64,000 nucleotides of DNA from assembly GCA_937891845.1 (NCBI GenBank), contig CALATP010000026.1, positions 26,429 to 90,428 of the forward strand. Direction: 5' to 3'. Positions 1 through 63,910 of the stretch are shown piece by piece. The position numbers and the translations under genes are program-made. Position 1 is the stretch's first letter. Each line of letters starts with the position of its first letter. The notes beneath the pieces are model-generated. The model was not told where the DNA came from and searched no databases. It was given only the letters and a program-made list of their open reading frames with translations. This DNA comes from an uncultured Porphyromonadaceae bacterium (GTDB lineage: Bacteria; Bacteroidota; Bacteroidia; Bacteroidales; Barnesiellaceae_A).

Positions 1-57
1 AAGTGAAATCCTATAAATAAAAGAAATACTGTTTTTTTTGCATAAAATTCTTTCATA

Positions 58-984: not shown

Positions 985-1044
985 ATTGTGATGCGTTAGC
1001 AATATTAATCTAACAGTGTGATTTCAGACTTTGAATGTTATTTT

Positions 1045-2262: not shown

Positions 2263-2360
2263 TAAACGTCATTGTATAGTGAAAATAGAAAAATAGCCAT
2301 TCCACTGTGCATCTGTTTAAGAGTAAGCCAACGTTGTTAAAGAAGATATATTTAGTCGAA

Positions 2361-3533: not shown

Positions 3534-3544
3534 AAATAAGCAAT

Positions 3545-4642: not shown

Positions 4643-4651
4643 TATTACACG

Positions 4652-5302: not shown

Positions 5303-5308
5303 CATATA

Positions 5309-6355: not shown

Positions 6356-6359
6356 ATAT

Positions 6360-7562: not shown

Positions 7563-7574
7563 AACTAATAATAT

Positions 7575-8756: not shown

Positions 8757-8766
8757 GAGATAAGAA

Positions 8767-9987
8767 ATGAATGTGCTGTTTTTGACAATGTCGCCCGGTA
8801 TGGCCAATATCGAGACTAGTGGTATTTATACCGATTTGATGCGCAAATTTCGAGACGAAGGACACATCTTGTATATTGTATACCCCAACGAAAGGCGATT
8901 GGGTATACCAACGCAAGTACGCACGCAAGGGAGTGTACATATATTAGGTGTAAAAACCTTAAACGTTACCAAAACCAATGTTATCGAAAAGGGCATAGGA
9001 CAATTGTCGTTAGAAGTATTATTTATGAATGCGCTGAAAAAATATTTTGGTGATGTAAAATTTGATATAATACTCTACTCAACGCCCCCTATAACCTTTA
9101 CGAAGGTAATACAATATGCAAAGAAACAAAATCCTCTAGCAATGACCTATCTATTGCTTAAGGACATATTCCCTCAGAATGCTGTAGATGTAGGAATGAT
9201 GACCAAGACGGGTATAAAAGGATTGTTGTATAAATTTTTCCGTGCTAAAGAAGAAAAGTTATACAAAATTTCCGATTACATAGGTTGTATGAGCCCGGCC
9301 AATGTGCAATATGTATTAAAGCACAACCCCTATGTAAATCCTGCAATAGTAGAAGTCGCACCTAATAGCTATAATATTCCTAGTGTTAAAATAGAAAAAA
9401 CGGTGTCGGATGCAGCTGAAATAAGAGCAAAATACAATTTACCGGTGGACAAACCCATATTTTTGTATGGAGGTAATATGGGCCGACCTCAAGGTATACC
9501 ATTCCTTATTGAATGTATGAAAGCTGTAAAAGATCGCACCGACTGCCATTTTCTTATCGTTGGTGACGGTACCGAATATCATAAAATAGAGGCATTCATA
9601 AAAGAATATGCGCCCAAGGCTGTGTCGCTTTTCAAGAGTTTGCCCAAAGCCGATTATGATATGTTGGCAAGTGTATGCGATGTAGGACTTATTTTTCTAG
9701 ATTATAGATTTACAATACCTAACTATCCAAGCCGGTTGTTGCCATACTTAATGGAGAAAAAACCTATAATCGCTGTTACCGATCCCAATTGTGATACAGG
9801 AACAATAGCCGAAAAAAATGGATATGGATTCTATTGCCCGAGCAATTCGGTAGGAGCTTTTGTCGATGTTATTGATAAGATGCTTCAATCTGATATTTGC
9901 ACTATGGGAGAGAACGGATACCAATTCTATCTCGATAACTATACCACCAATCATACATATAATACAATAATGAAGCATTTAAATTAA
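8767..9987 (+). CDS. glycosyltransferase family 4, WbuB-like (probable L-FucNAc transferase by position)
   Basis: 406-aa GT-B protein immediately after the fnlABC-type genes, which is the usual WbuB position. Confidence 0.7.
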   Translation: MNVLFLTMSPGMANIETSGIYTDLMRKFRDEGHILYIVYPNERRLGIPTQVRTQGSVHILGVKTLNVTKTNVIEKGIGQLSLEVLFMNALKKYFGDVKFDIILYSTPPITFTKVIQYAKKQNPLAMTYLLLKDIFPQNAVDVGMMTKTGIKGLLYKFFRAKEEKLYKISDYIGCMSPANVQYVLKHNPYVNPAIVEVAPNSYNIPSVKIEKTVSDAAEIRAKYNLPVDKPIFLYGGNMGRPQGIPFLIECMKAVKDRTDCHFLIVGDGTEYHKIEAFIKEYAPKAVSLFKSLPKADYDMLASVCDVGLIFLDYRFTIPNYPSRLLPYLMEKKPIIAVTDPNCDTGTIAEKNGYGFYCPSNSVGAFVDVIDKMLQSDICTMGENGYQFYLDNYTTNHTYNTIMKHLN

Positions 9988-9994
9988 GAACATT

Positions 9995-10627
9995 ATGTAC
10001 AAACATTTTTTTAAACGCTTTTTTGATTTCTGGATAGCTCTGATTGCTTTATTAATCATTTGGCCTATCCTACTGTTAATTACCATTTGGTTGCACTTTG
10101 CCAATAAAGGAGCTGGCGCGTTTTTTGTTCAAGAGCGTCCCGGTAAAGATGGTAAAATATTCAAGCTATTAAAGTTCAAATCTATGACTGATGAACGTGA
10201 TGCCGATGGAAATCTGTTGCCCGATGCGCAGCGTATAACAAAAATTGGTATATTTGTACGTTCAACATCCATAGACGAACTACCGCAACTGCTCAACGTA
10301 CTTAAAGGTGATATGTCTTTCATTGGCCCAAGACCTTTACTTCCTGAATATTTACCATTATATTCACCCGAGCAAGCTCGTCGTCATGAAGTGCGTCCTG
10401 GCATAACCGGTTGGGCACAAGTTAATGGTCGTAATTTTTTGCCATTTAGTAAAAGATTTGAATTGGATGTGTGGTATGTTGATAATTTAAATTGTCTAAT
10501 AGATTTAAAAATAATCCTATTGTCAATTAAGAATGTTTTTTTGAAAAAAGATGTTGCAAATGTAAGTGTAGAAAAAACTAATTCTGACGATTTGGGTTTT
10601 GTTAAATATATAAATAAAAAGAAATGA
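9995..10627 (+). CDS. undecaprenyl-phosphate sugar-phosphate transferase (small PglC/WcfS-type initiating transferase)
   Basis: 210 aa with one N-terminal membrane helix. Carries the Bac_transf motifs KFKSM, DELPQLLNVLKGDMSFIGPRP and RPGITGWAQVNGR. Confidence 0.85.
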   Translation: MYKHFFKRFFDFWIALIALLIIWPILLLITIWLHFANKGAGAFFVQERPGKDGKIFKLLKFKSMTDERDADGNLLPDAQRITKIGIFVRSTSIDELPQLLNVLKGDMSFIGPRPLLPEYLPLYSPEQARRHEVRPGITGWAQVNGRNFLPFSKRFELDVWYVDNLNCLIDLKIILLSIKNVFLKKDVANVSVEKTNSDDLGFVKYINKKK

Positions 10628-11256
10628 AGCATTTAATTATTATTGGAGCCGGTGGCATGGGTCGTTCTATTTGTTCTATTGCTAAAGGTTGTATTGGTTA
10701 TGATATAGACTTCTCTTTGAAAGGATTTATTGATGACGATTCATTAGCGTTAGAAGATTTTGAAAATTATCCGCCTTATTTAGGAAGTATTAAAGACTAT
10801 GTAATTCAGCCTAATGACGTATTTATTTGTTCAATTGGTAATACTCATACAAAACGTACTGTGTGTGAATACTTAAAAACAAAAGGTGCAAAATTTTATA
10901 CTCTCATTCATAAACTTGCTGTTATAAGGCAAAATGCCAAAATAGGAGAAGGTTCTTTAGTTGCAGAATATGCTTCTGTTGGTGTTGATGCCATTGTTGG
11001 AGAAAACTCATTGGTACAATCTTTTGCAACAGTAGCTCACGATTGTCGAATTGGCGACTATGTGCGAATAGATACGCATTGTACTTGTGTGGGAGGTGTA
11101 ATTGTAGAAGATAATGCAATGATTCATACCGGTGCAATCATTAGTCACAATGTTGTTGTTGGTAAAGATGCTCATGTCGGAGCTGGAAGTTTTGTAATAA
11201 AGAAAGTAAAAGCGGGAACAACTGTTTTTGGTAGCCCTGCTAGATATTTAAAATAA
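10624..11256 (+). CDS. NeuD/PglD-family amino-sugar N-acyltransferase (hexapeptide)
   Basis: LIIIGAGGMGRS Rossmann-like N-domain plus a left-handed beta-helix C-domain. 4-nt overlap with the upstream transferase. Confidence 0.8.
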   Translation: MKHLIIIGAGGMGRSICSIAKGCIGYDIDFSLKGFIDDDSLALEDFENYPPYLGSIKDYVIQPNDVFICSIGNTHTKRTVCEYLKTKGAKFYTLIHKLAVIRQNAKIGEGSLVAEYASVGVDAIVGENSLVQSFATVAHDCRIGDYVRIDTHCTCVGGVIVEDNAMIHTGAIISHNVVVGKDAHVGAGSFVIKKVKAGTTVFGSPARYLK

Positions 11257-11263
11257 AATTAAT

Positions 11264-12199
11264 ATGAAGGCTTTTATATTTCCTGGACAAGGTTGCCAGA
11301 AACAAGGAATGGGAAAAGAATTATATGATAATTTCCCGTTAGCAAAAGAATTGTTTGAGCAGGCAAATGAATACTTCGGTAGAAGAATTTCGGATGTGAT
11401 GTTTTATGGTGATGAAAATGAATTAATGGAAACTATAAACACGCAACCTGCAGTGTTTTTATACGAGGTTATTTTGGCTTCTGTTCAGAAAGAAGTTAAT
11501 CCGGATGTCGTTGCTGGGCATTCTTTAGGAGAGTTTGCTGCTTTGGTTGTTAGTGGTGCTATTAATTTTGAGGATGGACTAAATCTTGTTCTTAACCGCG
11601 CAGTGATAGGACAAAAAGCCTGTGAAAAGCATAAAACAAGTATGGGTGCTGTCATTGGGCTGTCAGATGAATATGTTGCTCGCAGAATAAAAGAAATTTG
11701 GGATGAAACTGGTGAGCCAATTTATTTCGCAAATTATAATGGTCCAGGTCAAGTTGTAATATCCGGATCTAAAAAAGGAGTTAGATTAGCTTGTAAAGCT
11801 TTTATGAAAGAAGGTGCAAAGAAGGCTGTCCCTCTATTAATTGGTGGTAGTTTTCATACACCTTATATGAATGAAGCTCGCGAGGAATTAGGTGTTATTA
11901 TTAAAAATACTGAGTTTAAAACACCTCGTATCCCAATTTATCAATGTGTAGATGCAAAACCTCATACCAATCCTGAGAAAATTAAAGAAAATTTGATACA
12001 ACATATTACCCATCCTGTTTTGTGGACAGATATGACACTTAATATGCAAAGGGATGGAGTAAATGAATTTTATGAAGTTGGTACAGATGATACTTTGCAA
12101 AAGATAGTAGCTCGTATGTGTCCAGAAAAAATAGTAACTTCAATATGGAATATTCCAACCTATAATAATATTAATCCATTAAAAAACAATTCGCTATGA
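11264..12199 (+). CDS. ACP S-malonyltransferase (FabD-like)
   Basis: FPGQGCQKQGMG N-terminus and the GHSLGEFAAL active-site motif. Confidence 0.85.
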   Translation: MKAFIFPGQGCQKQGMGKELYDNFPLAKELFEQANEYFGRRISDVMFYGDENELMETINTQPAVFLYEVILASVQKEVNPDVVAGHSLGEFAALVVSGAINFEDGLNLVLNRAVIGQKACEKHKTSMGAVIGLSDEYVARRIKEIWDETGEPIYFANYNGPGQVVISGSKKGVRLACKAFMKEGAKKAVPLLIGGSFHTPYMNEAREELGVIIKNTEFKTPRIPIYQCVDAKPHTNPEKIKENLIQHITHPVLWTDMTLNMQRDGVNEFYEVGTDDTLQKIVARMCPEKIVTSIWNIPTYNNINPLKNNSL

Positions 12200-12423
12200 C
12201 ATTAGATGATTTTGTACAATTGGTGGCGGAACAATTTGATGATACACCGGCAGAGCAATTTACTGCTGACACAAATTTCCGCTCTTTAGAAGAATGGGGT
12301 TCATTAGTTGCTTTATCTATTATTTCAATGGTAGATGAAGAATTTGAAAAACGTGTTACAGGGGCCGAATTAAAATCTTGTGATACTATAGAGCAACTTT
12401 TTCAACTAATAGAATCTAAGTAA
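12196..12423 (+). CDS. acyl carrier protein
   Basis: 75-aa acidic helical protein with a candidate phosphopantetheine serine (EEWGSLVALSII). 4-nt overlap with the fabD-like gene. Confidence 0.7.
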   Translation: MTLDDFVQLVAEQFDDTPAEQFTADTNFRSLEEWGSLVALSIISMVDEEFEKRVTGAELKSCDTIEQLFQLIESK

Positions 12424-12571
12424 ACCAATTTAGTGTGTCAAAATTATAGTTGTATTTAGTCATATGACTCCAATCTATTAATAGCTTTATATATTTTTGT
12501 TAGTAGTAGTAAATAGGATTTCGAAAGACTAAATATATATAATTTTGATACACCTTTTTATTAATATTATT

Positions 12572-13642
12572 ATGGCATATATAAATATTAAAAATGTAAA
12601 AATTCGAGGAATGGCAGCGTGTGTTCCCGAAAGAGTTGAGGAGAATAGAGATTATCCATTATTGTCAAAGGAAGAAATAGAAAAATATATTTCTGCTACA
12701 GGCGTTGAGCGTCGCCATTGTGCTGTCCACGATGGAAGTATTTGTACTTCTGATTTATGTATGAAAGCTGCAGAGAAGCTTATTGAAGAGTTGAAATGGG
12801 ATAAGTCTGAAATTGATTTGCTCATCTTTGTTTCGCATACAACAGATTATAAACTTCCGGCAACTGCAATTGTACTCCAGGATAAAATGGGGTTATCGAA
12901 AAAATGTTTAGCATTTGATATAACGTTAGGATGTTCTGGATATATGGTAGGAATGGGTGTCATTGGCAATATGATGTCTTCGGGTACTTTTAGAAAAGCC
13001 TTACTGATGGTAGGAAATACGCAATCTGAGTATGCCAGTTTTGAAGATAGAAGTATGTATTTGTTGTTAGGTGATGCTGGCACGGTATCTGCGTTAGAAT
13101 ATAATCCTAACGAGTATGATGAAATGGACTTTTGTTATATGAGTGATGGTAACGGTCGTAATTTTGTAATACTTCCAGACGGAGGATCGCGTAATCCTGT
13201 TAATGAAAAGTCTTTTATTATGGAAGATTGTGGAGATGGTATTAGACGCTCTCGTTTGCACGAAAAGATGGAAGGTGTTGAAGTCTTTTCATATGCGATG
13301 TCAAATGTTCCCAAATGCTATAAAGAGCTTTTAGAGAGAACAAATCTTCTACCGGAAAATATAGATTATTACCTATTGCATCAAGCAAACAAATTCCTGT
13401 GTGAAAAATTGCGTAAGAAGTTGAATGCTCCTATAGAGAAAGTTCCATATAATATTTCAGAGTTTGGTAATACAAGTGGTGCTACCATCCCTCTGTTAAT
13501 GGTCACTAACTTGGGTAAAGAAATGGGAACGAAACCATTAGAGTTGGCTATGGCTACAATAGGAGTGGGTTTTTCATTGGCGACGGGTCGTATTAAATTA
13601 TCTCAAGGCGATTTTGTTTGTCCTCCATTATTAACATTATAA
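12572..13642 (+). CDS. 3-oxoacyl-ACP synthase III (FabH-like KAS III)
   Basis: Candidate Cys/His/Asn triad contexts (LGCSGYMVG, LLHQANKF, GNTSGATIP). ATG 12572 preferred over the TTG at 12545. Confidence 0.85.
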   Translation: MAYINIKNVKIRGMAACVPERVEENRDYPLLSKEEIEKYISATGVERRHCAVHDGSICTSDLCMKAAEKLIEELKWDKSEIDLLIFVSHTTDYKLPATAIVLQDKMGLSKKCLAFDITLGCSGYMVGMGVIGNMMSSGTFRKALLMVGNTQSEYASFEDRSMYLLLGDAGTVSALEYNPNEYDEMDFCYMSDGNGRNFVILPDGGSRNPVNEKSFIMEDCGDGIRRSRLHEKMEGVEVFSYAMSNVPKCYKELLERTNLLPENIDYYLLHQANKFLCEKLRKKLNAPIEKVPYNISEFGNTSGATIPLLMVTNLGKEMGTKPLELAMATIGVGFSLATGRIKLSQGDFVCPPLLTL

Positions 13643-13653
13643 AATTTAAGAAG

Positions 13654-14397
13654 ATGTATAATCCTTTTTCATTAGAAGGTAAAACAATTTTGGTTACTGG
13701 CGCATCTTCCGGATTAGGGAAAGGTATTGCTATTGATTGTTCTAAAATGGGTGCTAATGTCTATATTACTGCTCGAAATGAGGAACGATTAAAAGAAACA
13801 CTTGCTTTGATGGATGGTGTAGAAAATAGACATATAATTGCTGATATGTCTACTGAAAAAGATATTGATTTAATTGTTGATTCTTTACCAATAGTTGATG
13901 GTGTTGTATTATGTGCTGGAATTATTAAAACGATGCCTGTGAAAAATATTACAGATAGTGCTGTTCAAGAGATATTTGATGTTAATATAATGTCGAATAT
14001 AAAGCTTTTAAGTCGTTTGCTAAAAAAGAAAAAATTATCGAGGGGGGCATCTGTAGTTTTTATTTCATCTGTATCAACGTTTAATGTTAAAGTTGGTAAT
14101 TCTTTATATTCTGGAACGAAAGGAGCTGTTAACTCGTTTGCTAAAGCGATGGCGTTAGAAGTTGCGAAACAAAATATGAGAGTAAATTGTATTCAGCCTG
14201 GTTTTGTACCATCAAAGATATTGGATAATAGTGGTATTGAGTCTGATGATATTTTAAATTGGTATAAAGAGCGCCATCCGCTTGGTTTTGGTACACCATC
14301 AGATATAGCTAATGGTTGTATATATCTTTTGTCTGATGCGTCTCGGTGGGTTACTGGTAGTATATTTACCATTGATGGTGGTTATACTTTGCAATAA
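13654..14397 (+). CDS. SDR-family oxidoreductase (FabG-like 3-oxoacyl reductase)
   Basis: TGASSGLGKG cofactor motif and the YSGTKGAV (YxxxK) catalytic motif. Confidence 0.85.
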   Translation: MYNPFSLEGKTILVTGASSGLGKGIAIDCSKMGANVYITARNEERLKETLALMDGVENRHIIADMSTEKDIDLIVDSLPIVDGVVLCAGIIKTMPVKNITDSAVQEIFDVNIMSNIKLLSRLLKKKKLSRGASVVFISSVSTFNVKVGNSLYSGTKGAVNSFAKAMALEVAKQNMRVNCIQPGFVPSKILDNSGIESDDILNWYKERHPLGFGTPSDIANGCIYLLSDASRWVTGSIFTIDGGYTLQ

Positions 14398-15035
14398 TGA
14401 AAGTTGAAAGAATCATAAATTCACCTCTCCCATCAAATGCATACGTTATTTGGAATGAGAGTAATCGTCAGTGTATCATAATAGACCCAGGAACACCTCA
14501 CCCATATAAAATAATAGATTTATGTGATAAATTTAATTTAAAACCTGAGGCTATTATATTGACTCATTTTCATTTTGATCATGTTTGGGGGGCTAATTGT
14601 TTAAGAGAAAAATATGACTGCTCAATAATTTGTTCTCAAAGGTGTGCAGAAAAACTAATGATACCACAAAACTATTTTAATTTATTATATTTTAATGATG
14701 AATCTATGTTTTCCATTGAGAATATAGATGTAATTATAAATGATAATATTGAGATGGATATTGCCGGTATTATGCTTAAATTTCTTATGACACCAGGACA
14801 TACAGATTGTTCATTATGCATTTGTATTGATAATATGATTTTTACAGGAGATACTATTATGAATGGTTATAAGCCTATAATAAAGGCTAAACATGGTGGT
14901 AGTAAAGAAGACTTTAGTAATACTTTGAAAGAATTTTTTATGAGCCAAGATTTAAATAGTATAATATACCCGGGACATGATGATTGTTTTGTATTGTCTG
15001 AAGTGAAAAGTTTTTATGAAATATATATAAAATAA
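14397..15035 (+). CDS. MBL-fold metallo-hydrolase
   Basis: HFHFDHVWG (HxHxDH) plus downstream TPGHT and GHDD. Start overlaps the stop of the SDR gene. Confidence 0.8.
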   Translation: MKVERIINSPLPSNAYVIWNESNRQCIIIDPGTPHPYKIIDLCDKFNLKPEAIILTHFHFDHVWGANCLREKYDCSIICSQRCAEKLMIPQNYFNLLYFNDESMFSIENIDVIINDNIEMDIAGIMLKFLMTPGHTDCSLCICIDNMIFTGDTIMNGYKPIIKAKHGGSKEDFSNTLKEFFMSQDLNSIIYPGHDDCFVLSEVKSFYEIYIK

Positions 15036-15041
15036 AGCTTT

Positions 15042-16286
15042 ATGCAAAATCGCATCTATCTCTGCCTTGCGCATATGAGTGGCAATGAGCAGAAGTTTAT
15101 ACAAGAGGCCTTTGATACCAATTGGGTTGTGCCTCTAGGTCCTAATGTTAATGGTTTTGAGGCCGATCTTGAGGCCTTTGTCGGTCAAGACAAGAAGGTT
15201 GTTGCTCTTTCGGCCGGTACAGCGGCTGTGCATCTTGCGCTTATTGCGTGCGGGGTAGGACAGGGCGATGAGGTTATATGTCAGTCATTTACCTTCTGTG
15301 CTTCGGCCAATCCTATTACCTATCTCGGTGCAACTCCGGTTTTTGTCGATTCCGAGCGTGACACCTGGAACATCGATCCCGTTTTGCTCGAAGAGGCTAT
15401 TGTAGACCGCATCGCCAAGACAGGACGTAAGCCCAAAGCCATCATACCCGTCTATCTTTACGGTATGCCCGCCAAGATTGATGAGATTATGGCCATAGCC
15501 AACAAGTACGACATTCCTGTCATTGAGGATGCCGCCGAAGGCTTTGGTTCGCGCTACAAAGGACAAGTTTGTGGCACATTTGGTAAGTATGGCATCTTAT
15601 CGTTCAATGGCAACAAGATGATTACCACATCAGGTGGTGGAGCAATGATATGTCCCGACGATGCTGCCAAACGCGAAATTATGTTCTTTGCCACACAAGC
15701 TCGCGAGGCATATCCCTACTATCAGCACGAGCACATTGGGTACAATTATCGTATGAGTAACATTTGTGCCGGTATTGGTCGCGGACAGATGACTGTGGCC
15801 GACGAACACATCGAGCATCATCGTCACGTATGTAATCTATACAAGGAGTTGCTGGCCGATGTCGAGGGCATCACACTACACGAAAATCCGTCACCCGACT
15901 TCGATAGTAACTATTGGCTCAACACCATTTTGTTGCATCCTGCATTGCGTGTCAAAGGTCAGGAAAATGCATATAAGGCTGCTATACAAGGTGCAGTAGG
16001 TGGAGCTGCCGGTGTCACACACGAAGCATCTTCGCTACACACCGATTGCGAACCCAATGCCAACGTTGAGGCTATGCGTATTGCTCTCGATGCAGCCGGT
16101 ATCGAGGCACGCCCTTTATGGAAACCAATGCACCGTCAACCGGTTTTTGCCACTGCACCGGCCTATGTGAATGGTGTGAGCGAAGACCTTTTTGCCCAAG
16201 GTCTCTGTTTGCCCAGTGGCCCCTGCGTTACCGACGACGATGTTCGTTACGTCGTAGAGCAAATCAAGGCAAATATCGTTCGATAA
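15042..16286 (+). CDS. DegT/DnrJ/EryC1/StrS-family PLP-dependent sugar aminotransferase
   Basis: N-terminal MSGNEQKFIQEAFDTNWV and FNGNKMITTSGGG (catalytic Lys). Clearly higher GC than the genes upstream. Confidence 0.85.
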   Translation: MQNRIYLCLAHMSGNEQKFIQEAFDTNWVVPLGPNVNGFEADLEAFVGQDKKVVALSAGTAAVHLALIACGVGQGDEVICQSFTFCASANPITYLGATPVFVDSERDTWNIDPVLLEEAIVDRIAKTGRKPKAIIPVYLYGMPAKIDEIMAIANKYDIPVIEDAAEGFGSRYKGQVCGTFGKYGILSFNGNKMITTSGGGAMICPDDAAKREIMFFATQAREAYPYYQHEHIGYNYRMSNICAGIGRGQMTVADEHIEHHRHVCNLYKELLADVEGITLHENPSPDFDSNYWLNTILLHPALRVKGQENAYKAAIQGAVGGAAGVTHEASSLHTDCEPNANVEAMRIALDAAGIEARPLWKPMHRQPVFATAPAYVNGVSEDLFAQGLCLPSGPCVTDDDVRYVVEQIKANIVR

Positions 16287-16311
16287 GTTTTTATTTCTGA
16301 ATAGTTATTGT

Positions 16312-22968: not shown

Positions 22969-23073
22969 TATGACTGTTGATACATACGTTTGCCGCTTCT
23001 CGTTTCTCTCTATCGCACAATTGTGTTATATATCGATGTTTATTTTGCAGCGGTAAACCATTAAAATTCTATT

Positions 23074-24993
23074 ATGAAATCCAATGACTTTATGAAGCCT
23101 CACTATCAAGCCTTGCTGCAGTCCGACCGTAGCAATGCCGATGTGGCGGGCACCTTTATGCAACAAGATAATGAATTGCTCAACAAGGCACACGATGCGT
23201 GGAATGCTATGGCAACTTATAGGCAATGTCGCACACGCAATCGCAATTATACCTACGGAAAACAGTGGGTCGATCCCATCTCACTTGCCGATGGTCGCGT
23301 GCTTTCGGAGGAACAATATCTTCGCGAACAAGGCAAAGTGCCGCTCAAAAACAACCTCATCCGGCAGCTTGTCAAGAGTGTAATAGGACAGTTTAGAAGT
23401 GCCCAGACCGAGCCGGTGTGTATCTCTCGCGAACGCAAAGAACAATCATTGGGCGAAATTATGAGTGTCGTTATGCAATATGCCTATCAGCACAATCGGC
23501 TCTATGAACTCGACAGCCGCTCGCTCGAAGAGTTTCTCATTTCTGGTTCTTGTTTCCATAAGATTGGCTACGGAAATCGTCGCGGAAAAACCGATGTGTG
23601 GATAGATGCCGTACAACCTTCTCGTATCTTCTTCAACACGATGGAAGATTGTCGCCTGTGGGATTGCAATCTCATTGGCGAGTTGCACGATATGACTCTC
23701 AATGACGTTATAGCACGTTTTGCCGGTGGTAGCCCGCAGAAGGCTCGACACCTCCGACAAATATTTGGAGATGCAACCGATGTCAGTCATTACAACTCTA
23801 TCGACACTGCTTCGGCTCAACGTTTTGATTCAATTAACTTTTTTGTACCCGACAATTCTCACCATTGTCGCGTTATTGAGCTATGGACACTCGATAGTCG
23901 TGAGATGTTGCGTTGTCACGATACTATGTCGGGACAATTCTACAAAGTTGATGTTGCACTCGCACACGACGTAGAAAAAGAAAACCAACGTCGTAGGGAT
24001 GAAGCTGCATCGCGAGGTATCGAGGCCGCTCAAGTGCCCATTATCGAGACCGAATGGTTTCTGGAGAACTATTGGTACTACCGTTTCTTCTCTCCATTGG
24101 GACATATTCTTGATGAAGGCGAGTCGCCCTATTGGCACGGTGAACATCCTTATTCGTTGCGCCTTTACCCTATGATCGATAGTGAAATTCACTCCTTTGT
24201 CGAAGATGTCATTGACCAACAACGATATGTCAATCGACTCATTACTATGATCGACTTCATTATGGGTAGCAGTGCCAAGGGTGTACTATTATTCCCCGAA
24301 GACCAAATACCCGATGGAATGTCTCTCGATGATATCGCTACGGAGTGGACTCGTTGCAATGGTGTGATTCTCTTCCGGCCCAAGCCCGGTTGTGCTATGC
24401 CTCAGCAGATTGCTGTAAATGCAACTAATGTAGGTGCTTACGAACTATTATCCTTGCAGATGCGACTGCTCGAAGATATTTCGGGGGTACACAGTGCCAT
24501 ACAAGGCAAGGCTGTACCTTCGGGAACGGCATCTTCCCTATATGCTCAGCAAGTGCAATATTCGGCTGTCAATTTGCTCGACCTTTTTGAGTCCTTCAAG
24601 GCTTTTCGTGAGGAACGTGACACAAAGTTGATGAAAACTATTCAGCAATTCTACGACGAGAACCGTTACAAACTTATTGCCGGTGATGATAACTTCGATA
24701 CCGATAGTATCACACCCGAGAGAGTACGAAATGCCGAGTTCGATATTGTTATTGCCGAGTCGGCGTCTGCCCCTGCTTTCCGTCAGATGTCTAATGATTT
24801 TCTTTTGGAACTTTTCCGTTCTGGCCACATTTCGTTGCAAGCGCTACTCGAAACAGGCACTTTCCCTTTTGCCGACAAACTTTTACAATATGTCAACTCC
24901 GAGCAACAGCAACAAATGCAAATGATGGCTGCTCTCTCGCAGCAACAAGCTCCCGGTTCTTCATCACCGACAGCTCAACCTGCACAACTTTAA
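23074..24993 (+). CDS. phage portal (head-tail connector)-like protein
   Basis: 639 aa. N-terminal RNRNYTYGKQW-type motif, then a long alpha/beta core and a Gln-rich C-terminal tail (SEQQQQMQMMAALSQQQ). Overall resemblance to podovirus-type portals, judged by eye only. Confidence 0.6.
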   Translation: MKSNDFMKPHYQALLQSDRSNADVAGTFMQQDNELLNKAHDAWNAMATYRQCRTRNRNYTYGKQWVDPISLADGRVLSEEQYLREQGKVPLKNNLIRQLVKSVIGQFRSAQTEPVCISRERKEQSLGEIMSVVMQYAYQHNRLYELDSRSLEEFLISGSCFHKIGYGNRRGKTDVWIDAVQPSRIFFNTMEDCRLWDCNLIGELHDMTLNDVIARFAGGSPQKARHLRQIFGDATDVSHYNSIDTASAQRFDSINFFVPDNSHHCRVIELWTLDSREMLRCHDTMSGQFYKVDVALAHDVEKENQRRRDEAASRGIEAAQVPIIETEWFLENYWYYRFFSPLGHILDEGESPYWHGEHPYSLRLYPMIDSEIHSFVEDVIDQQRYVNRLITMIDFIMGSSAKGVLLFPEDQIPDGMSLDDIATEWTRCNGVILFRPKPGCAMPQQIAVNATNVGAYELLSLQMRLLEDISGVHSAIQGKAVPSGTASSLYAQQVQYSAVNLLDLFESFKAFREERDTKLMKTIQQFYDENRYKLIAGDDNFDTDSITPERVRNAEFDIVIAESASAPAFRQMSNDFLLELFRSGHISLQALLETGTFPFADKLLQYVNSEQQQQMQMMAALSQQQAPGSSSPTAQPAQL

Positions 24994-57948: not shown

Positions 57949-58299
57949 TTATTGGTTTTCGGAGCGACGTGTACCCAACAGTTCCATAACATCGGCTACA
58001 ATCTCGGTGCGTTGGTGTGTAACACCGGCTTGGTCGTTCCATTGGTTGGTACGTAGCTTGCCTTCGATATACAATTGAGTGCCTTTGCGTACGTATTTTT
58101 CGGCAATCTCGGCCAATCCACGCCACAGAACGATGTAGTGCCATTCGGTACGGTCGGGAACTTGAGTGCCATTGGCAGCGGTGTATCCACGCTCGGTAGT
58201 AGCCATTCGTAGGCGAGCTACACATACACCTTTTTCGAGGTATCTAATTTCGGGGTCGGCTCCTACGTGACCAACCAAGATTACTTTGTTTACAGACAT
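57949..58299 (-). CDS. ssb: single-stranded DNA-binding protein (short form)
   Basis: VNKVILVGHVGADPEIRY OB-fold start, and W...HYIVLWRGLAEIAEKYVRKGTQLYIEGKLRTNQW. 116 aa, with no acidic C-terminal tip. TACCTTTG -7 box on the minus strand at 58324-58331. Confidence 0.85.
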   Translation of the reverse strand: MSVNKVILVGHVGADPEIRYLEKGVCVARLRMATTERGYTAANGTQVPDRTEWHYIVLWRGLAEIAEKYVRKGTQLYIEGKLRTNQWNDQAGVTHQRTEIVADVMELLGTRRSENQ

Positions 58300-58449
58300 A
58301 ATAATATAGTATGAAATGAAAAACAAAGGTAGTGATTATGTGTTTAACTCGCAATGATTTTTTTGATTTTTAGCGTGTGTTGCAATTCAAGATTTGGGCA
58401 GTAAACAGTATCATTTTTTCATAATGGTTGGAGCTGTGGATCGTTGTGT

Positions 58450-60429
58450 CTAGAACGAGGCTTCGTTGATGATATTGTTGTGTCGTGTGTATGTGATAAC
58501 GGCGGTAGGTTCTTGTTGTGCAACGTATAGTCCGATGCATCGAGTAATGAGTATGTCGTCGTGTTCGCCTTCTTGTGCGCCATAACTGCCGTTGGGCTTG
58601 CGTTCAAACACGTCAAACTCGTGACAAGCCATCTCGTCGTGTTCGATGTAGTTGTTGTTGCGCAGAGCATTTATCATCGTATTGATGATGATGTTCTTGG
58701 TGTTGCGATTCATATGAAACCCCCATCTTGTCGGTGCCGAGAGTGCTATTTCGTCGCCGGTCATCTGTCGGGCATATAGATTGTTGTAGTGTCGTGCAAT
58801 GGTGTCGAGGATGTAGAACGGACGTGCATCGTCGTGCTCGGTCTCGAGTGTATTACTTTCGATGACCAACAGAGCTTTGTTGTAGAATGTTGCTATCTGA
58901 GCAGCTTTCCACGCCAAAAGGTCGTGGTCGATGTGTCCGCGCCATTGGGCTACCAGCTCTATTGTGTTGTCGATGTTGAGTCGAGAACGGTCAAATACGG
59001 CGATGACCGAAAAATCGGCTTTGCTTGAGCGTCCGCCAATGTCTACGGCAACGATGTATTGGTTGCGAATGATACGTGACGGTTGAGGCATTTGCCATAT
59101 TTTTAGGAGTCCTGTCGATTCTTGTCGGAAGTCGATGCCTGATAGTGCTTTATGTCCGGTTATGTCGTTGGCTACGAGCTCGCCCACAGCGATGGGAGTA
59201 GAACAGTTGTCGCGCAGTCGTTGTATGGCAATCGGGTCGAAAACTCGTTCGAGAGAATGAGCAAAGGCTTCGGTCTCGTCGGATGGATATTCGGCCATCA
59301 TATCGGCATGGTGGGAGTATTCTCGTAGTTTGGCACGATACCACGCAATGGCTTCGAGAGTAGCCCCCATCTGCCATAGCCACTTTTCGTATCGGTTGAG
59401 AGAAGAAGCAAATGCGTGATAGTCGTCGATGGGTTGGCTATACATCTCTATTTCGTACCAGGGAACAAAAATAGCAGTTTTGTCGCTCTCGTTGCGCTTG
59501 GCTCTGAGGTACTCGCGATGGAAGTAACCACCAGTTCCATTGGCAGTGCTTTCTATTACAACGATAGAGTGCGGCAATAGTGCAATACTGCCGTAAATGG
59601 ATCGGATGAGACTCTCGGGCGTATGAGCCGGAGTGTTGCTCCAGAATGCAGCCTCACTGAGGTGTGCCATTGCGATGTCGTTGCCACGAATGGCTTCGGG
59701 CGACTCGGCCGAGCATATTGTGACTTTGCAATTGCGTTGAGCTATCAATGAGGTGTTGGAAGAGCGTTCAAATGGTTGAAAATGTGGTGTGTCCGGTGCG
59801 CCAATGAGCCACGCCGGATAGTTGCTGAGTAGCTTTGTGTACATACCCTTGATGTTGGCAGCAGCATCTTTGAGGTGGGCGCAGATGATGCTGTTCCAGT
59901 TGTGTAGGTGAACGAGTTGTATCCAGGCCATATACACTTGAGTGAGTGTAGAACCACCCCATTGTCTGGCCTTGAGCATAATGATGCGTATGGGCTTGTG
60001 TGCGCAACGTTGCGTTTCGAGCAACTCGAGGTATCGTCGTTGAGGCCGGTTGAGGATGAAAGGAACGTCGTCTTGTCCCATTTTGTCTTTGATCTTGACA
60101 AACATAGCAGCCCAAAACTCAAAGTCGTGTAGAATACGCTCTTTTATCCATAATGACCAGATGTCGCTGCGCAGTCGCCTTGAAGGGCGTTTTTTGAGAT
60201 GTCGAGAAATAAAAGTGTCGATGCTGCCGGCTTCGACCAAAAGCCTAACCCAATTGCAGCTGTCGAGCATAGTATGTGGAATGTATTGCTCGGTGATGGG
60301 AGCATCGGAAAGAGTAACAAGAGTGCGTTGCGCACCACACCCTTCGCCCGTAGCGGGGTTGTAGGTGTGGTGAGAGGCACTTTTGCGACGATTGTTCTCG
60401 GAAATAATGTCGTTGATGTCTTGTAGCAT
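58450..60429 (-). CDS. terL: phage terminase large subunit-like protein
   Basis: ATPase motifs LKARQWGGST (Walker A-like), IAMAHLSEAAFW (Walker B position) and VIESTANG (motif III). C-terminal RNase H-like nuclease signature (VAVDIGGRS...DFSVIAV, EGEHDDILITR). Confidence 0.7.
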   Translation of the reverse strand: MLQDINDIISENNRRKSASHHTYNPATGEGCGAQRTLVTLSDAPITEQYIPHTMLDSCNWVRLLVEAGSIDTFISRHLKKRPSRRLRSDIWSLWIKERILHDFEFWAAMFVKIKDKMGQDDVPFILNRPQRRYLELLETQRCAHKPIRIIMLKARQWGGSTLTQVYMAWIQLVHLHNWNSIICAHLKDAAANIKGMYTKLLSNYPAWLIGAPDTPHFQPFERSSNTSLIAQRNCKVTICSAESPEAIRGNDIAMAHLSEAAFWSNTPAHTPESLIRSIYGSIALLPHSIVVIESTANGTGGYFHREYLRAKRNESDKTAIFVPWYEIEMYSQPIDDYHAFASSLNRYEKWLWQMGATLEAIAWYRAKLREYSHHADMMAEYPSDETEAFAHSLERVFDPIAIQRLRDNCSTPIAVGELVANDITGHKALSGIDFRQESTGLLKIWQMPQPSRIIRNQYIVAVDIGGRSSKADFSVIAVFDRSRLNIDNTIELVAQWRGHIDHDLLAWKAAQIATFYNKALLVIESNTLETEHDDARPFYILDTIARHYNNLYARQMTGDEIALSAPTRWGFHMNRNTKNIIINTMINALRNNNYIEHDEMACHEFDVFERKPNGSYGAQEGEHDDILITRCIGLYVAQQEPTAVITYTRHNNIINEASF

Positions 60430-60435
60430 ACGTGA

Positions 60436-60687
60436 TTAGAGTTTTTTGAGTTGTTTTTCGATCTCGGCAATGCGATTGAGTGTATCGCTGAAAGCATCTT
60501 GTTTGTTGCCGTTGGGAGCCATCAGTGCTGCCATATCCTTGCGAATAATCTCAATGCACTTGATGAGTACTGTTTCGTTGGTTGTTTCGCGCAAAACGTC
60601 GAGCAGACGGTCGTAACAGATGTGAATGGCTTCGTTCTGCTTGGCGAGTAGTGACGCGATGTCGTTCAAATTGAAAATTTCTGTCAT
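60436..60687 (-). CDS. small helical hypothetical protein (in the position of a small terminase subunit)
   Basis: 83 aa from ATG 60687. Its stop lies 6 nt before the terL start. No motif, so the suggestion rests on position only. Confidence 0.4.
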   Translation of the reverse strand: MTEIFNLNDIASLLAKQNEAIHICYDRLLDVLRETTNETVLIKCIEIIRKDMAALMAPNGNKQDAFSDTLNRIAEIEKQLKKL

Positions 60688-60743
60688 AAATATTAAAAAT
60701 TTAAAGTGTTGAAATGTGCGATACCTTTTATCGCATCGAGATG

Positions 60744-60751
60744 CAAAGTTA
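60744..60751 (-). promoter_or_regulatory. -7 promoter box (TAACTTTG on the minus strand) for the terminase operon
   Basis: The reverse complement of caaagtta matches TAnnTTTG, 57 nt upstream of ATG 60687. Confidence 0.4.
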
Positions 60752-60757
60752 GAGCGC

Positions 60758-60769
60758 GATATTTGCACA
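60758..60769 (+). promoter_or_regulatory. near-consensus -7 box (GATATTTG) for the divergent plus-strand genes
   Basis: One mismatch to TAnnTTTG. Shares the 11-mer ATATTTGCACA with the portal promoter at 22830-22840. Sits 40 nt upstream of ATG 60806. Confidence 0.3.
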
Positions 60770-60805
60770 GCGATGCTATAAAATGACTAACAAAAAATTT
60801 TTTTT

Positions 60806-61351
60806 ATGCTTAATGAAATGTTTAATTGGGCGTATGATTACGCCTTTAAGAGTTACTCAAACAAGAAAAAGAGAGACTCGTATAACGAGTTGTATAACAA
60901 ACAGCTACAACATTACAACACTCGTCTGGGTGCAGCTACATCGTTGTTCAATCACGCCTATTATCGTAACTATCTTGATACTCCCAATGCCCGTAATATG
61001 CTGAAACGGGTGCGAGAGCAACTCTCGGAGCAAACACGCAAGTTGCGTAATGCCGGTGTCGTAACCGGTGCTACAAGTGAAGCGATAGCAGCACAACAAA
61101 AGAATAATAATAAGTTGATAGATAATGTGATAGGAACACTTGCCAATGCCGATGCTGCTCGAAAAGATCGCGCGTTGGAGAATTATGCCAATGAGCGAAG
61201 TCGCTTGTCCGATTATTTGTTTCAGGCCGATATAAATCGTTATGGCAAGTTGTATGAGTTGGAGCAGGAGGAGCTGATGGATAATGCAAAATTCTGGAAA
61301 CCTATTGCTTCAATGTTTTCGCAAAGAATAGAAGATTTGATCAATAAATAG
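60806..61351 (+). CDS. coiled-coil hypothetical protein (phage-associated by context)
   Basis: 181 aa, Asn/Lys/Arg-rich helical sequence. First gene of the plus-strand unit divergent from terL. Confidence 0.5.
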   Translation: MLNEMFNWAYDYAFKSYSNKKKRDSYNELYNKQLQHYNTRLGAATSLFNHAYYRNYLDTPNARNMLKRVREQLSEQTRKLRNAGVVTGATSEAIAAQQKNNNKLIDNVIGTLANADAARKDRALENYANERSRLSDYLFQADINRYGKLYELEQEELMDNAKFWKPIASMFSQRIEDLINK

Positions 61352-61353
61352 AA

Positions 61354-61677
61354 ATGATGAGTGAGAGAAATTGTAAAGCCGGCTCGATGCAAGGCGTGGG
61401 CGAGGCAGGTGCAACCGGTGTTGCAGAAAGAGAGTGTGGGGTGGCCGGCAATGATGTGCTGAATGAGTTGCAAGAGATGTGCCGATGTGTGAGTCGCGGA
61501 AGAAGATGTGGCATGCACAACGGTGTGTCAGCCTTGTTGCGCTCGTGGTATATGCCACGTGATGTGTATGATGTCGAGTGTTACAAGCGACGTTTCTATG
61601 TGTTACGTGGGTTGCAAGCTATATTAAGTGAGATATTGAACAAACAAAAAAAAGGTGGAAATGAAACAGAACATTGA
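61354..61677 (+). CDS. small Cys-rich hypothetical protein
   Basis: 107 aa with 7 Cys. Starts 3 nt after the previous stop and overlaps the next gene by 23 nt. Confidence 0.4.
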   Translation: MMSERNCKAGSMQGVGEAGATGVAERECGVAGNDVLNELQEMCRCVSRGRRCGMHNGVSALLRSWYMPRDVYDVECYKRRFYVLRGLQAILSEILNKQKKGGNETEH

Positions 61678-63910
61678 AGATAGAGATTACGAAGAGAATA
61701 ATCTGTTGGAATATTTGCCTCGACATATGTGGGGAGGAGATGTAAAAAAGGTTATTGAAGAAAATGACCTGTATAGAGGCAATCCCAATGCTCTTACGAC
61801 TTTGGAATATCGTAGTCCGATATATAGACCCGAAGAGCGTACGATGCCGAGTTATGTGATGAGATTTTTGTTGGAAAAGTCACAGAGGACAGCAACGGAT
61901 TTTGGTGCAAATTTGATGAGAAGATTGATGCAATATCAAAATTCGACATCGCATTTGCAAGAAGATGAGTCGTATTTAGAACCTTTGAGTCACTCGTTGA
62001 GATTTCCTCATCGACGAGACGATATGCCACCGATGGCAATGCCCGAGACGGGAACTGTGAGTGTGGGTGCGCCGGGTAATGATGGCAAACCGGTGAGCAG
62101 TGCGACTCCATCGAGTGCCGGGGGTGTAGAATCGGGTGCCACAGAAACTTCTCCTACGTACAATCATAAAACAACAGATGGCGAAGAGAATGTCGTGAAA
62201 CGATTTGATGAAGGTGTGCAGACCGCCTTCAATCAGATAGAGTTGTCGTGGGACTATCTGATGAAGAATGTAGAGAAGTTTTTTACCAAAGATCCGGCGA
62301 AACGGCAAAGTCTGGACTACAAATTGTACGAGATAGGGCAAAAGTATGCCGCCATACCCAAGACACTGGGAGCAGCGACAGTGGGAAACATAGGTACTAA
62401 TATAGTGGCAGGAGCATTGCCCGTAGCTATAGCCGGAGTGGTGGGAGGTACGTCGGGAGCTGCCGTTGCCGGAGGTGCAATGGCTGTTACCGATATAGCC
62501 AATACTATAGCAAGTGCCAATTTGGAAATGGATGGTTATGAGAGCGCAACGGGTGAGAAGTTGTCGGGTGCTACACGTTCGGCGTATGTTATATCGTCGG
62601 TTGCGTCGGGACTGATTATGGATGCAATTATGGTATTACCTTTTATGAAAAAACTCACTCCGTCCTTGCGTAAAGACGTGAACAAGCAGTTGCAACAAGC
62701 CATTTTCAATAATCCTGTTTCACAGCGGGAGTTTAATGTGATGACCCAGCAAGTGTTGCGCAATGAGTTGCCCTATTGGAATAAGGTACTGATGGGAAAT
62801 GCATTGGAGTCGGGTGTAGGCGGAGGCTTGTCGGCCGGATTGCAAGAGGCGAGTCGCAGTATCTATACACGTGAGGCACCTGAATTGTCGCAAATAGTCA
62901 CTTCAACATTGACCGGAGTGGCAGTGGGTGCAACGCAAGGTACGTTGGGTACGGCAGTGAAACGATATAATTTGTCGCAAGAGCGCGCCGGTAGTGACGA
63001 AACCTTCTATGTGAGCAACCAATTCCGAAAGTCGAGTACAGGGCAGGAGATAGCCGAGTTGCGACCTACTGCGATAGAGCAGTCGGACAGCGGAGAGACT
63101 TATGTAAAGGGTCATATTGTCAATCCCGGCGGTGATATTGAAGCCGAGCAGGTATTTCCGATAGAGAATGTTTCGGTGGGGTCGTATCGAGGTGCGCAAG
63201 AGTCGGGTGCTACTAATGTGACTTGGAAAGACTTGTATAAGATACCGGATGAGCGCATAAAGATGTATAATGACAAGTGGAATGAAGCTCGTATCAAGTA
63301 TGATGATGAAGCCAGACGTGAGGAGGCCTATGCCGCGCAGAGTGATATTGTGCAGGGTATAGCGCAAGAGATGGGTATTCCTGTGACTGTGTATGCCAAA
63401 CTGGAAGACTTGCCAAAGGAATTGCAGAATAATCCGGAGGTGATAAATTCGTATGCAGTGACTGTGGAAGATGATGAAATCTTGTTGGTATTAGATCAAT
63501 GTCAGGGCTTGACCGCCGACAATATAGCAGCCGTTCTTCGTCACGAGGCAATAGGTCACTATGGTTTGCCCAAATTGTATGCCGACAATGCCGATTATAA
63601 TAAAGTAATCTATGACTTGGGAAAGAAGATTCTCAAATCGAAGAAACCTACTATGGTGTTTGATGATAATAATGCGGCCAGACGCCAGCATATTATGGAG
63701 GTGGTGGAGGAGTATATATCGCGTAATGCCGAGCCGCGACCGTATAATGCGGCCCACTTGCAACACAATCCATATGACTTGGTATATGATATGTTGGTGC
63801 GCAGTGACAAGAACTTGTTGAATATGACTATGAATGAGAAGCGTAAGAGAGCCAGGATGGCCGGTAAGCCAATGCCTCGTCTTTTGGGTAACAGTCCGTA
63901 TTTTGATTGA
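61655..63910 (+). CDS. large phage-associated protein (internal/minor-head or polyvalent-type; function unknown)
   Basis: 751 aa. Gly/Ala-rich hydrophobic tract (GAATVGNIGTNIVAGALPVAIAGVVGGTSGAAVAGGAMAV), HEAIGH segment, charged C-terminus. Confidence 0.5.
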   Translation: MEMKQNIEDRDYEENNLLEYLPRHMWGGDVKKVIEENDLYRGNPNALTTLEYRSPIYRPEERTMPSYVMRFLLEKSQRTATDFGANLMRRLMQYQNSTSHLQEDESYLEPLSHSLRFPHRRDDMPPMAMPETGTVSVGAPGNDGKPVSSATPSSAGGVESGATETSPTYNHKTTDGEENVVKRFDEGVQTAFNQIELSWDYLMKNVEKFFTKDPAKRQSLDYKLYEIGQKYAAIPKTLGAATVGNIGTNIVAGALPVAIAGVVGGTSGAAVAGGAMAVTDIANTIASANLEMDGYESATGEKLSGATRSAYVISSVASGLIMDAIMVLPFMKKLTPSLRKDVNKQLQQAIFNNPVSQREFNVMTQQVLRNELPYWNKVLMGNALESGVGGGLSAGLQEASRSIYTREAPELSQIVTSTLTGVAVGATQGTLGTAVKRYNLSQERAGSDETFYVSNQFRKSSTGQEIAELRPTAIEQSDSGETYVKGHIVNPGGDIEAEQVFPIENVSVGSYRGAQESGATNVTWKDLYKIPDERIKMYNDKWNEARIKYDDEARREEAYAAQSDIVQGIAQEMGIPVTVYAKLEDLPKELQNNPEVINSYAVTVEDDEILLVLDQCQGLTADNIAAVLRHEAIGHYGLPKLYADNADYNKVIYDLGKKILKSKKPTMVFDDNNAARRQHIMEVVEEYISRNAEPRPYNAAHLQHNPYDLVYDMLVRSDKNLLNMTMNEKRKRARMAGKPMPRLLGNSPYFD

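Follow-up and report, generated by a model that had tools for sequence, protein, structure and literature searches.

A large terminase with serine at the Walker-B aspartate position and its probable place in a dispersed, gene-transfer-agent-like gene set of Bacteroidales

Introduction

The large terminases (TerL) of phages combine an N-terminal additional strand, catalytic glutamate (ASCE) P-loop ATPase with a C-terminal RNase-H-like nuclease, and the reference TerL of the Terminase_6 type is T4 gp17 (PDB 3CPE, 3EZK, 2O0H), which possesses K166 in the GKT of its P-loop, D255 in Walker B and T285 in the coupling motif. Natural TerLs that depart from these canonical motifs are known: lambda gpA has a deviant Walker A (K-XXXX-GY-S) with lysine at the N-terminal end of the P-loop, while Sf6 gp2 has undergone an Asp-to-Glu change and keeps an acidic residue at the Walker-B Asp position (PMC13595956). 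The 2026 review that describes these two deviations mentions no hydroxyl residue at the latter position, and a second review of packaging motors treats the Walker-B motif as conserved and leaves a Ser/Thr variant unmentioned. Here we describe a further natural departure, a TerL with serine at this position, which is encoded in a 64,000-nucleotide stretch of DNA (hereafter the window; assembly GCA_937891845.1, contig CALATP010000026.1, positions 26,429 to 90,428) from an uncultured Porphyromonadaceae bacterium of the order Bacteroidales. Its gene belongs to a phage-like module of five genes, in which the genes for an 83-aa protein and TerL are on one strand and those for proteins of 181, 107 and 751 aa (p181, p107 and p751) are on the other (Table 1).

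Phage-derived packaging genes that are owned by bacterial hosts are best known from the gene transfer agents (GTAs), such as RcGTA, CcGTA, BaGTA, VSH-1 and FpGTA. The genes for heads, packaging and lysis in these agents are under purifying selection and vertically inherited; they occupy several loci, are co-regulated and lack replication and integration functions. The genes described below are alike in these respects, their co-regulation being predicted from a shared promoter. GTA-like elements are found mainly in Alphaproteobacteria and a few other lineages, with none reported for Bacteroidales, and FpGTA, from Faecalibacterium, has been presented as the first GTA of the gut microbiome and as the first whose morphology is podovirus-like (2026 paper, PMC12946183). 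Our own search of the literature likewise found no report of a GTA in Bacteroidales or of the dispersed system presented here. We propose that the TerL is standard for its clade and probably active, and that its module is a vertically inherited and host-owned part of a dispersed, promoter-linked, GTA-like viriform; taken as a whole, we consider this reading to be probable.

The large terminase and its active centre

The first-pass annotation of the window had called the 659-aa open reading frame (ORF) terminase-like, and the ORF is a genuine phage large terminase of the T4 gp17-like, PHROG 2 kind. It matches phrog_2 (large terminase; 6.5e-24), T4 gp17 was found with it by phmmer against PDB sequences, and a profile of 42 members of its family aligned residues 80-324 with residues 96-315 of gp17, the whole ATPase domain, at an E value of 3.5e-8. 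With an AlphaFold (AF2) model of the protein (predicted local distance difference test score, pLDDT, of 80.4), Foldseek ranks T4 gp17 first (4e-24) and the terminases of T7, PhiV-1, HK97, D6E, Sf6 and P74-26 lower, and the nuclease domain of RB49 gp17 is also matched (TMt 0.78). Both domains that characterize a TerL are present, and the protein resembles gp17 not only in its two-domain fold but also in its RQxG P-loop core, catalytic Glu, S/T-T coupling motif and HDD nuclease motif. Pfam, NCBIfam and PADLOC returned nothing useful for TerL or for the four other proteins of the module (the 83-aa protein, p181, p107 and p751). No other strong TerL was found in the genome.

The ATPase centre differs from that of gp17 at three positions. 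In the P-loop, LKARQWGGST spans residues 152-161, and the profile aligns kaRQwGGST with lsRQlGKTT of gp17. The canonical Walker A (G/A-XXXX-GK-T/S) is absent: the position of gp17 K166 is occupied by G159, while a lysine, K153, stands at the N-terminal end of the loop, the same idea as in lambda gpA. In Walker B, the stretch AMAHLSEAAFW (NDIAMAHLSEAAFW) carries S258 and E259. With phmmer, SPEAIRGNDIAMAHLSEAAFW is placed on the Walker-B region of gp17 with AMAHLSEAAF in the same register, and phmmer and the 42-sequence profile agree in aligning S258-E259 with D255-E256. The strict Walker-B motif (hhhhD plus catalytic Glu) is therefore missing its Asp and retains its Glu. The codon of S258, AGT (59656-59658), is two base changes away from an Asp codon (GAY), which rules out one miscalled base as the source of the serine. 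A canonical Asp-Glu was sought elsewhere in the ATPase domain and none was present; the invariant D251 is at the start of the strand, away from its active end. In the coupling motif, which follows strand 4 and has the form S/T-x-T, the corresponding residues are E293-S294-T295, within VIESTANG. The strands of the model run through residues 147-153, the last of which is K153, 252-257, which end just before S258, and 289-295, and a helix begins at residue 159.

In the nuclease domain, D463 lies in VAVDIGG, and D624 and D625 lie in EHDD. The HDD of this motif is aligned with the gp17 HDD that holds D542, and counterparts of D401 and E458, the two other members of the gp17 acidic triad, are also present, their equivalence being by position only. 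The by-eye alignment in the first-pass annotation, in which Ser replaces the Walker-B Asp, the catalytic Glu is kept and the nuclease-type acidic residues are intact, is thus borne out by phmmer and the profile; the ATPase peptides that it quoted are all found in the translation of the ORF, and the profile alignment leaves Walker B where it had been placed by eye.

In ASCE ATPases, strand 4 is flanked by strands 1 and 3, and its tip therefore adjoins both the P-loop and Walker B. Since E293 is at this tip, it would be positioned to supply the carboxylate that is missing from Walker B, and we regard it as a candidate relocated Mg-binding carboxylate. In such an arrangement, E293 would take over Mg2+ coordination together with the hydroxyl of S258 and a bound water.

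A clade of large terminases with Ser/Thr-Glu in Walker B

Whether orthologues share the serine had been raised in the first-pass annotation, and they do: H256, S258 and E259 are invariant in 120/120 closest homologues (52-100% identity), which display the pattern M-A-H-[LCM]-S-E-[VA]-A-F, and K153, R155 and Q156 are kept in 118 of these 120. A wider set was formed from the best 150 representatives of clusters at 50% identity, of which 143 align across the Walker-B motif. At the Asp position these possess Ser (115), Thr (27) or Cys (1) and never Asp; the dipeptides are Ser-Glu (114), Thr-Glu (27), Ser-Asp (1) and Cys-Leu (1), and a His two residues before the Ser position is present in 140. Most cluster representatives also keep K153, R155 and Q156, and ESTA is near-invariant among them.

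The family is also found in cultured phages. Searches of cultured phage genomes with tblastn identified it in three isolated temperate phages of Bacteroides, namely BKO1-TP3, BS-TP4 and BF1-TP2 (PQ571269, PQ571277 and PQ571263), which were described in Gut Microbes in 2025 (PMC12694917) and whose TerLs are 43-44% identical to that of the window over 96-97% of the length. For instance, gp51 of BKO1-TP3 contains KARQWGGST, VHLSEVG and ESTANG, and it is the sole TerL-like gene annotated or found in the complete 65-kb genome of this phage. In GenBank, gp51 (PQ571269.1, 37872-39986) is mis-annotated as 'tail spike protein', a label that the matching stretches in BS-TP4 and BF1-TP2 carry as well, and gp50, which is located just upstream and encodes a rhomboid-like membrane protein, is labelled 'glycoside hydrolase'. 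More distant members are the TerLs of Pseudomonas F116, the Vibrio podophages D60 and douglas 12A4, the 933W-like coliphage PhiR5_2 and the environmental podovirus ctuNt529, all with ILKARQxGxST, LHxSE and ESTAxG; ESTA is invariant in the distant cultured phages.

Relative to gp17, a triple change is shared throughout this clade: Lys has moved to the N-terminal end of the P-loop, the Walker-B Asp is replaced by Ser/Thr, and the first Thr of the coupling motif is replaced by Glu. This differs from Sf6 gp2 in that the acidic residue at the Walker-B position gives way to a hydroxyl residue. Because Ser/Thr-Glu is found clade-wide, including in cultured and propagating phages, the serine is not a lesion, and S258 is an ordinary active-centre feature of a large clade of headful terminases rather than a defect. 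For the same reason, the strict Walker-B motif is in practice not needed for membership in the TerL family. The unusual and possibly crippled ATPase implied by the first-pass annotation does not agree with this distribution. As the homologues are the only TerLs of isolated phages, ATP-driven packaging may be attributed to the TerL of the window as well, and we consider it very probably catalytically active.

Dispersed phage-derived loci

Homologues of other BKO1-TP3 proteins were found by tblastn against the whole draft genome. They occur singly at separate chromosomal places, each flanked by housekeeping genes. One of them, a lone portal gene, is 33 kb from the TerL gene, between a gene of the Omp85 family and an amidase gene; its product is 46% identical to gp54 of BKO1-TP3. 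Genes for a scaffold-like protein, a capsid protein and a 210-aa protein (p210) form another locus and a lone tail nozzle gene a third; a lysis cassette, located by way of the promoter described below, is a fourth (Table 1). The model of the 853-aa nozzle protein is matched by Foldseek to the tail nozzles of SU10, T7 (gp12) and P22 (gp10) and to the muzzle of crAss001. In the lysis cassette, the endolysin is a Peptidase_M15_3 protein (1.4e-17) and the spanin-like lipoprotein has a C-terminal membrane anchor. Together with the TerL module, these loci, hereafter the set, include parts for a particle and its release: capsid, scaffold, portal, TerL, nozzle and a holin-endolysin-spanin group, with p210 as a possible adaptor and the 83-aa protein as a possible small terminase (TerS). 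A search of PDB sequences with p210 gave no match.

The phages of the BKO1-TP3 type possess homologous portal, capsid, scaffold and nozzle-type (gp34) proteins and the same TerL motifs. In BKO1-TP3, BS-TP4 and BF1-TP2, however, the genes are held in one genome of 64-68 kb, whereas here they are spread over at least six chromosomal loci, and BKO1-TP3 also has an integrase, a repressor, replication genes and a diversity-generating retroelement, functions that are absent from the set. Contiguous prophage versions of the gene set exist in the genomes G002 (contig C32) and G142 (contig C12), and they presumably show what the ancestor looked like. The prophage of G002 (C32:28000-43423) contains paralogues of nozzle, portal, TerL, scaffold, capsid, p181-like, T7 gp14-like and LPD14 polyvalent proteins. 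Its TerL also has Ser-Glu.

Dispersal is not confined to the genome under study (G000). Five congeners were examined: G013, G005 and G002 and the more distant G011 and G012. The portal, scaffold-capsid-p210, nozzle and lysis loci are intact in 5/5, the portal orthologues with about 70% identity. In G011, a contig of 1.29 Mb carries the genes for capsid (0.40 Mb), nozzle (0.60 Mb) and TerL (0.78 Mb), whereas that for the portal is on another contig. Orthologues of TerL, portal and capsid proteins (58-66% identity) are encoded apart from each other in five other genomes, from four lineages of the order.

A promoter shared by six transcription units

Six transcription units, namely 83-aa/TerL, the p181 operon, portal, scaffold, nozzle and lysis, share the element TAT[C/A]GCA-N26-TTTG. 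Upstream of p181, portal, scaffold and nozzle it takes the form yTATCGCA, followed by exactly 26 nt and the TTTG of a -7 box, at 56-91 nt from the start codon. The position of the element is kept in the congeners at each locus, including that of the lysis cassette, and the architecture of the 83-aa/TerL promoter is also found in G013 and G005. In the two distant species (G011 and G012), the core reads TATTGCA or TATTACA, and the portal site there was missed by the search pattern. Scans with variable spacing proved too noisy, and the fixed spacing of N26 was the useful pattern. TATMGCA-N26-TTTG matches the window three times, in each case at a promoter of the set and nowhere else, where chance would give 0.17 matches. 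The exact element TATCGCA-N26-TTTG occurs ten times in the genome, and five of these sites are upstream of units of the set (p181, portal, scaffold, nozzle and lysis cassette). The best reading of these observations is that the TerL module would belong to a dispersed and co-regulated set under a dedicated promoter.

The exact sites on contigs C22, C49 and C61 overlap housekeeping genes, in sense or antisense orientation, and look like chance occurrences. Two others (C30:6453 and C30:10797) are in intergenic regions of about 830-870 nt with few ORFs; no ORF of at least 50 aa and no Rfam match were found downstream, and these sites may belong to RNAs or small genes of the regulon that lack annotation, or may be due to chance. 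Near the second of them (C30, about 10868-10906), an AT-rich element of about 30 nt, TATAATTAATATTATGTTAAATAGGATAT, recurs with 86-100% identity but unrelated flanks in four further species of the genus, and appears to be a short conserved or mobile site. On contig C8 (about 9877), a gene for a 233-aa protein of the rhomboid family has TATCGCA-N25-TTTG upstream, and related phages have a rhomboid-like gene beside TerL; it may be another regulon member or a chance match.

Conservation and vertical inheritance

The same five genes are found between ssb and the gene for thiamine pyrophosphokinase (TPK) in 3/5 congeners (G013, G005 and G002), in which TerL is about 75% identical to that of the window and the flanking core genes are 51-91% identical. 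The two more distant congeners have the module elsewhere in the genome, as does Coprobacter fastidiosus, where it lies between secA and His-kinase genes. Among the genomes searched, all 14 species of the family possess TerL. In a sample of 251 genomes of the order, 17 have it, and six lineages have it in both sampled genomes. Every gene is open, and synonymous divergence (dS) is above 1.2, and thus saturated, in every species pair; the ratios of nonsynonymous to synonymous divergence (dN/dS) range across the set from 0.02 to 0.15 at this saturated dS (Table 1 for the closest pair). The structural genes are, as in GTAs, fixed in the host, vertically inherited and under purifying selection, and the module as a whole reads as old, vertically inherited and host-fixed. 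The recent insertion implied by the first-pass annotation is at odds with the shared site in the three congeners and with the presence of the module elsewhere in the two distant ones and in Coprobacter.

The set might instead consist of scraps of decaying prophages, in which TerL would be a relic whose ATPase died with the loss of the Mg-binding Asp and the scattered genes would be unrelated leftovers. The absence of both the canonical Walker-B Asp and the Walker-A Lys, the lack of a Pfam match for TerL and the small number of phage genes at the locus could be taken in this sense. However, the same TerL motifs are present in propagating phages, the ORFs are intact in all 14 species at saturated dS, with dN/dS of about 0.03-0.12, the catalytic and nuclease residues are invariant, and a positionally conserved promoter is common to the six units. 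We consider decay to be extremely improbable.

The TerL module and its flanks

The TerL ORF ends 150 nt from the start of ssb at 58299, and the -7 box of ssb (TACCTTTG) is located at 58331-58324 on the minus strand, as the first-pass annotation had stated. The gap between the two genes showed no intrinsic terminator. The product of ssb (57949-58299) is short, with 116 aa, and is without the acidic C-terminal tail. As ssb adjoins the module in only part of the genus, it is probably a host gene outside the set. On the other side, the contig runs 6.5 kb past the window, and TPK, pnuC, tatD and ispA follow the gene for p751.

The left edge of the module was described by the first-pass annotation as sharp, and this also holds: no tRNA was found from position 55572 of the window to the end of the contig, no integrase was found in the module, and no convincing flanking direct repeat was found in window positions 57071-65071. 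This edge is sharp because the TerL module is old, vertically inherited and host-fixed, and the pair of attL/attR repeats and integrase that had been named as the sign of an ordinary recent prophage was not found. We also weighed the locus as an integrated prophage, for which a contiguous genome, an integrase, att sites and replication or lysogeny genes would be expected. The locus has five genes between core genes, with no integrase, att site or tRNA, and the other phage-derived genes are at other loci; this assignment was rejected.

The ORF of the 83-aa protein stops 6 nt upstream of the ATG of TerL, and in Coprobacter and the examined congeners its orthologues likewise precede TerL. The location in the TerS position noted in the first-pass annotation is therefore correct, but similarity to the protein encoded there in related phages is lacking: the 83-aa protein resembles neither gp49 of BKO1-TP3 nor the 128-aa protein of the prophage, it matched no known family, PHROG included, only close homologues were found, and its assignment as TerS by homology was rejected.

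The divergent p181-p107-p751 operon also accompanies TerL in Coprobacter and the examined congeners. It matches, in position and homology, an operon of the prophage on C32 of G002, in which the genes that follow the p181 homologue encode a protein with a weak match to the T7 internal-virion protein gp14 and a protein with the LPD14 polyvalent-protein domain; there is also a weak match to gp55 of BKO1-TP3. Protein p751 contains a Gly/Ala hydrophobic tract and an HEAIGH (HExxH) motif. Given the gp14-like and LPD14 genes of the prophage operon, p181, p107 and p751 are best read as probable internal virion or ejection proteins.

This pairing of TerL with ejection and polyvalent-like proteins, one of them with HExxH, together with the lysis cassette in the regulon, would also suit a domesticated particle that serves some purpose besides DNA transfer, such as protein delivery, killing or a lysis-linked release of DNA for biofilms or nutrients, in which TerL would be kept only because heads must fill to mature. 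The strong constraint on the TerL nuclease residues and the portal fits a central role of DNA packaging instead, and no toxin domain was detected in p751 with Pfam, NCBIfam and PADLOC; we regard such a role as distinctly unlikely.

At the far end of the window, positions 1-16300 contain co-oriented genes of low GC (0.32-0.43) that look like a surface-polysaccharide locus and are unrelated to the terminase set.

Table 1. Features of the TerL gene, its module and the dispersed loci. Coordinates are positions in the window unless a contig is named; dN/dS is for the closest pair of species.
Feature	Location	Strand	Basis or remark	dN/dS
ssb (housekeeping) with its own -7 box	57949..58331	minus	Pfam SSB 1.8e-31; host gene flanking the module on the right, as read on the minus strand	
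TerL-like large terminase, 659 aa	58450..60429	minus	N-terminal ASCE ATPase and C-terminal RNase-H-like nuclease	0.035
Nuclease acidic residues D463, E524, D624/D625	58555..59043	minus	Invariant in the 42-sequence alignment	
Coupling (C) motif E293-S294-T295	59545..59553	minus	Profile; aligned to gp17 T285-T286-T287	
Walker-B strand D251-I-A-M-A-H256-L-S258-E259	59653..59679	minus	phmmer and profile alignment	
Deviant Walker A K153-A-R-Q-W-G-G-S-T161	59947..59973	minus	Profile alignment to gp17	
83-aa helical protein, TerS position, first gene of the TerL operon	60436..60687	minus	ORF list	0.023
Promoter of the 83-aa/TerL operon, TATAGCA-N26-TTTG	60744..60780	minus	-7 box TAACTTTG	
Promoter of the divergent p181-p107-p751 operon, TATCGCA-N26-TTTG	60729..60765	plus		
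p181-p107-p751 operon (181, 107 and 751 aa)	60806..63910	plus	Position and homology to phage operon	0.15 (p181)
Portal promoter, TATCGCA-N26-TTTG	23011..23047	plus		
Lone P22-type portal	23074..24993	plus	Pfam P22_portal 2.2e-38; PHROG portal 4e-74	0.073
Scaffold-like, capsid and 210-aa (p210) genes	contig C28, beside gltX		Capsid is PHROG major head protein	0.029 (scaffold); 0.048 (capsid)
Tail nozzle, 853 aa, lone gene	contig C23, between rpmB and men genes		AlphaFold pLDDT 89.4	0.061
Lysis cassette	contig C38:17995-19128 (G000)		Holin-like (77 aa), endolysin (135 aa) and spanin-like lipoprotein (149 aa)	

A probable gene-transfer-agent-like set

Because the set is dispersed, vertically inherited, under purifying selection, served by one promoter and without integrase, replication or lysogeny genes, it fits a GTA-like viriform, and in our best reading this definition would suit it better than any alternative. 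Among known GTAs, FpGTA shares with it the podovirus-like tail (PMC12946183). The dispersal is far more extreme here than in the GTAs, as portal, nozzle and TerL are each at a locus of their own. Based on the gene content, we propose that when the factor that reads the shared promoter becomes active, the cell would build procapsids; TerL, docked on the portal, would cut the DNA and pump it by headful; and the short tail would then be added and the particles released by the lysis cassette.

Capsid-forming phage-inducible chromosomal islands (PICIs) and other phage satellites resemble the set in being resident in the host, in having their own capsid, portal and terminase and in lacking tail fibres, but they are contiguous, excisable and self-packaging islands with an integrase, whereas the set is dispersed and could not be packaged as a unit. 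A dependence on helper phages may nevertheless be considered. The genes would be switched on only upon infection by a phage of the BKO1-TP3 type, or upon induction, via the late activator of the phage, and would either steal its tail fibres to spread host DNA, as in capsid-forming PICIs, or sabotage its packaging as an anti-phage system. Related phages and prophages do coexist with the set in the same genus (G002:C32 and G142:C12), neither a tail-fibre gene nor a regulator was found in the set, and the non-standard upstream promoter element could belong to an activator encoded by a phage. On the other hand, a search for TATCGCA-N26-TTTG at the corresponding late promoters in BKO1-TP3 and in the prophage on C32 of G002 gave no match, all 14 species retain the set and most of them show no second TerL copy, the set has its own nozzle and lysis genes, and dispersed genes cannot mobilize themselves as an island. 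We regard helper dependence as unlikely and retain the GTA-like viriform as the preferred reading.

Several points weigh against this preference. A tail fibre or receptor-binding protein, a proven adaptor and a proven TerS were not found in the set. The genome is a draft of 67 contigs with 94.5% completeness. With identities of 30-46% and dN/dS values that reach 0.4, p181 and p751 are fast-evolving proteins, which indicates looser selection. With regard to TerL, the co-variation of the three active-centre residues is essentially one evolutionary event and hence weak statistical evidence, the pLDDT of the model is just 44-79 around residues 241-270, and the literature yielded no biochemical study of a TerL from this clade.

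In a broader and more tentative proposal, to which we give somewhat less than even credence, several Bacteroidales lineages, apparently with relatives of Barnesiellaceae and Coprobacter among them, would own an ancient, podovirus-derived and scattered GTA with a TATCGCA-N26-TTTG promoter and a third layout of the ASCE active site, in which Lys is moved, Asp is replaced by Ser/Thr and the coupling motif contributes a Glu.

Implications

The serine is ordinary for its clade, and the genomic context of the gene is the more interesting result. For the study of packaging motors, the clade is nevertheless of value: it is large and common, it includes the transducing phage F116, phages of the 933W type and abundant gut Bacteroides phages, and it lacks the Walker-B Asp in a coupled rewiring of three positions, where reviews note only Sf6, with Glu, as an exception. 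It offers a mutational test of Mg2+ coordination in these motors. For genome annotation, the locus suggests that phage hallmark genes standing alone between core genes deserve more than dismissal as debris, and the promoter motif provides a handle for finding the remaining members of such sets.

Bacteroidales exchange genes at high rates, and no GTA has previously been reported for the order, in which we find a vertically inherited and probably co-regulated set for head, packaging, nozzle, ejection and lysis functions. The set is also present in Coprobacter fastidiosus, for which NCBI genome records exist, and standard methods can thus be applied to it.

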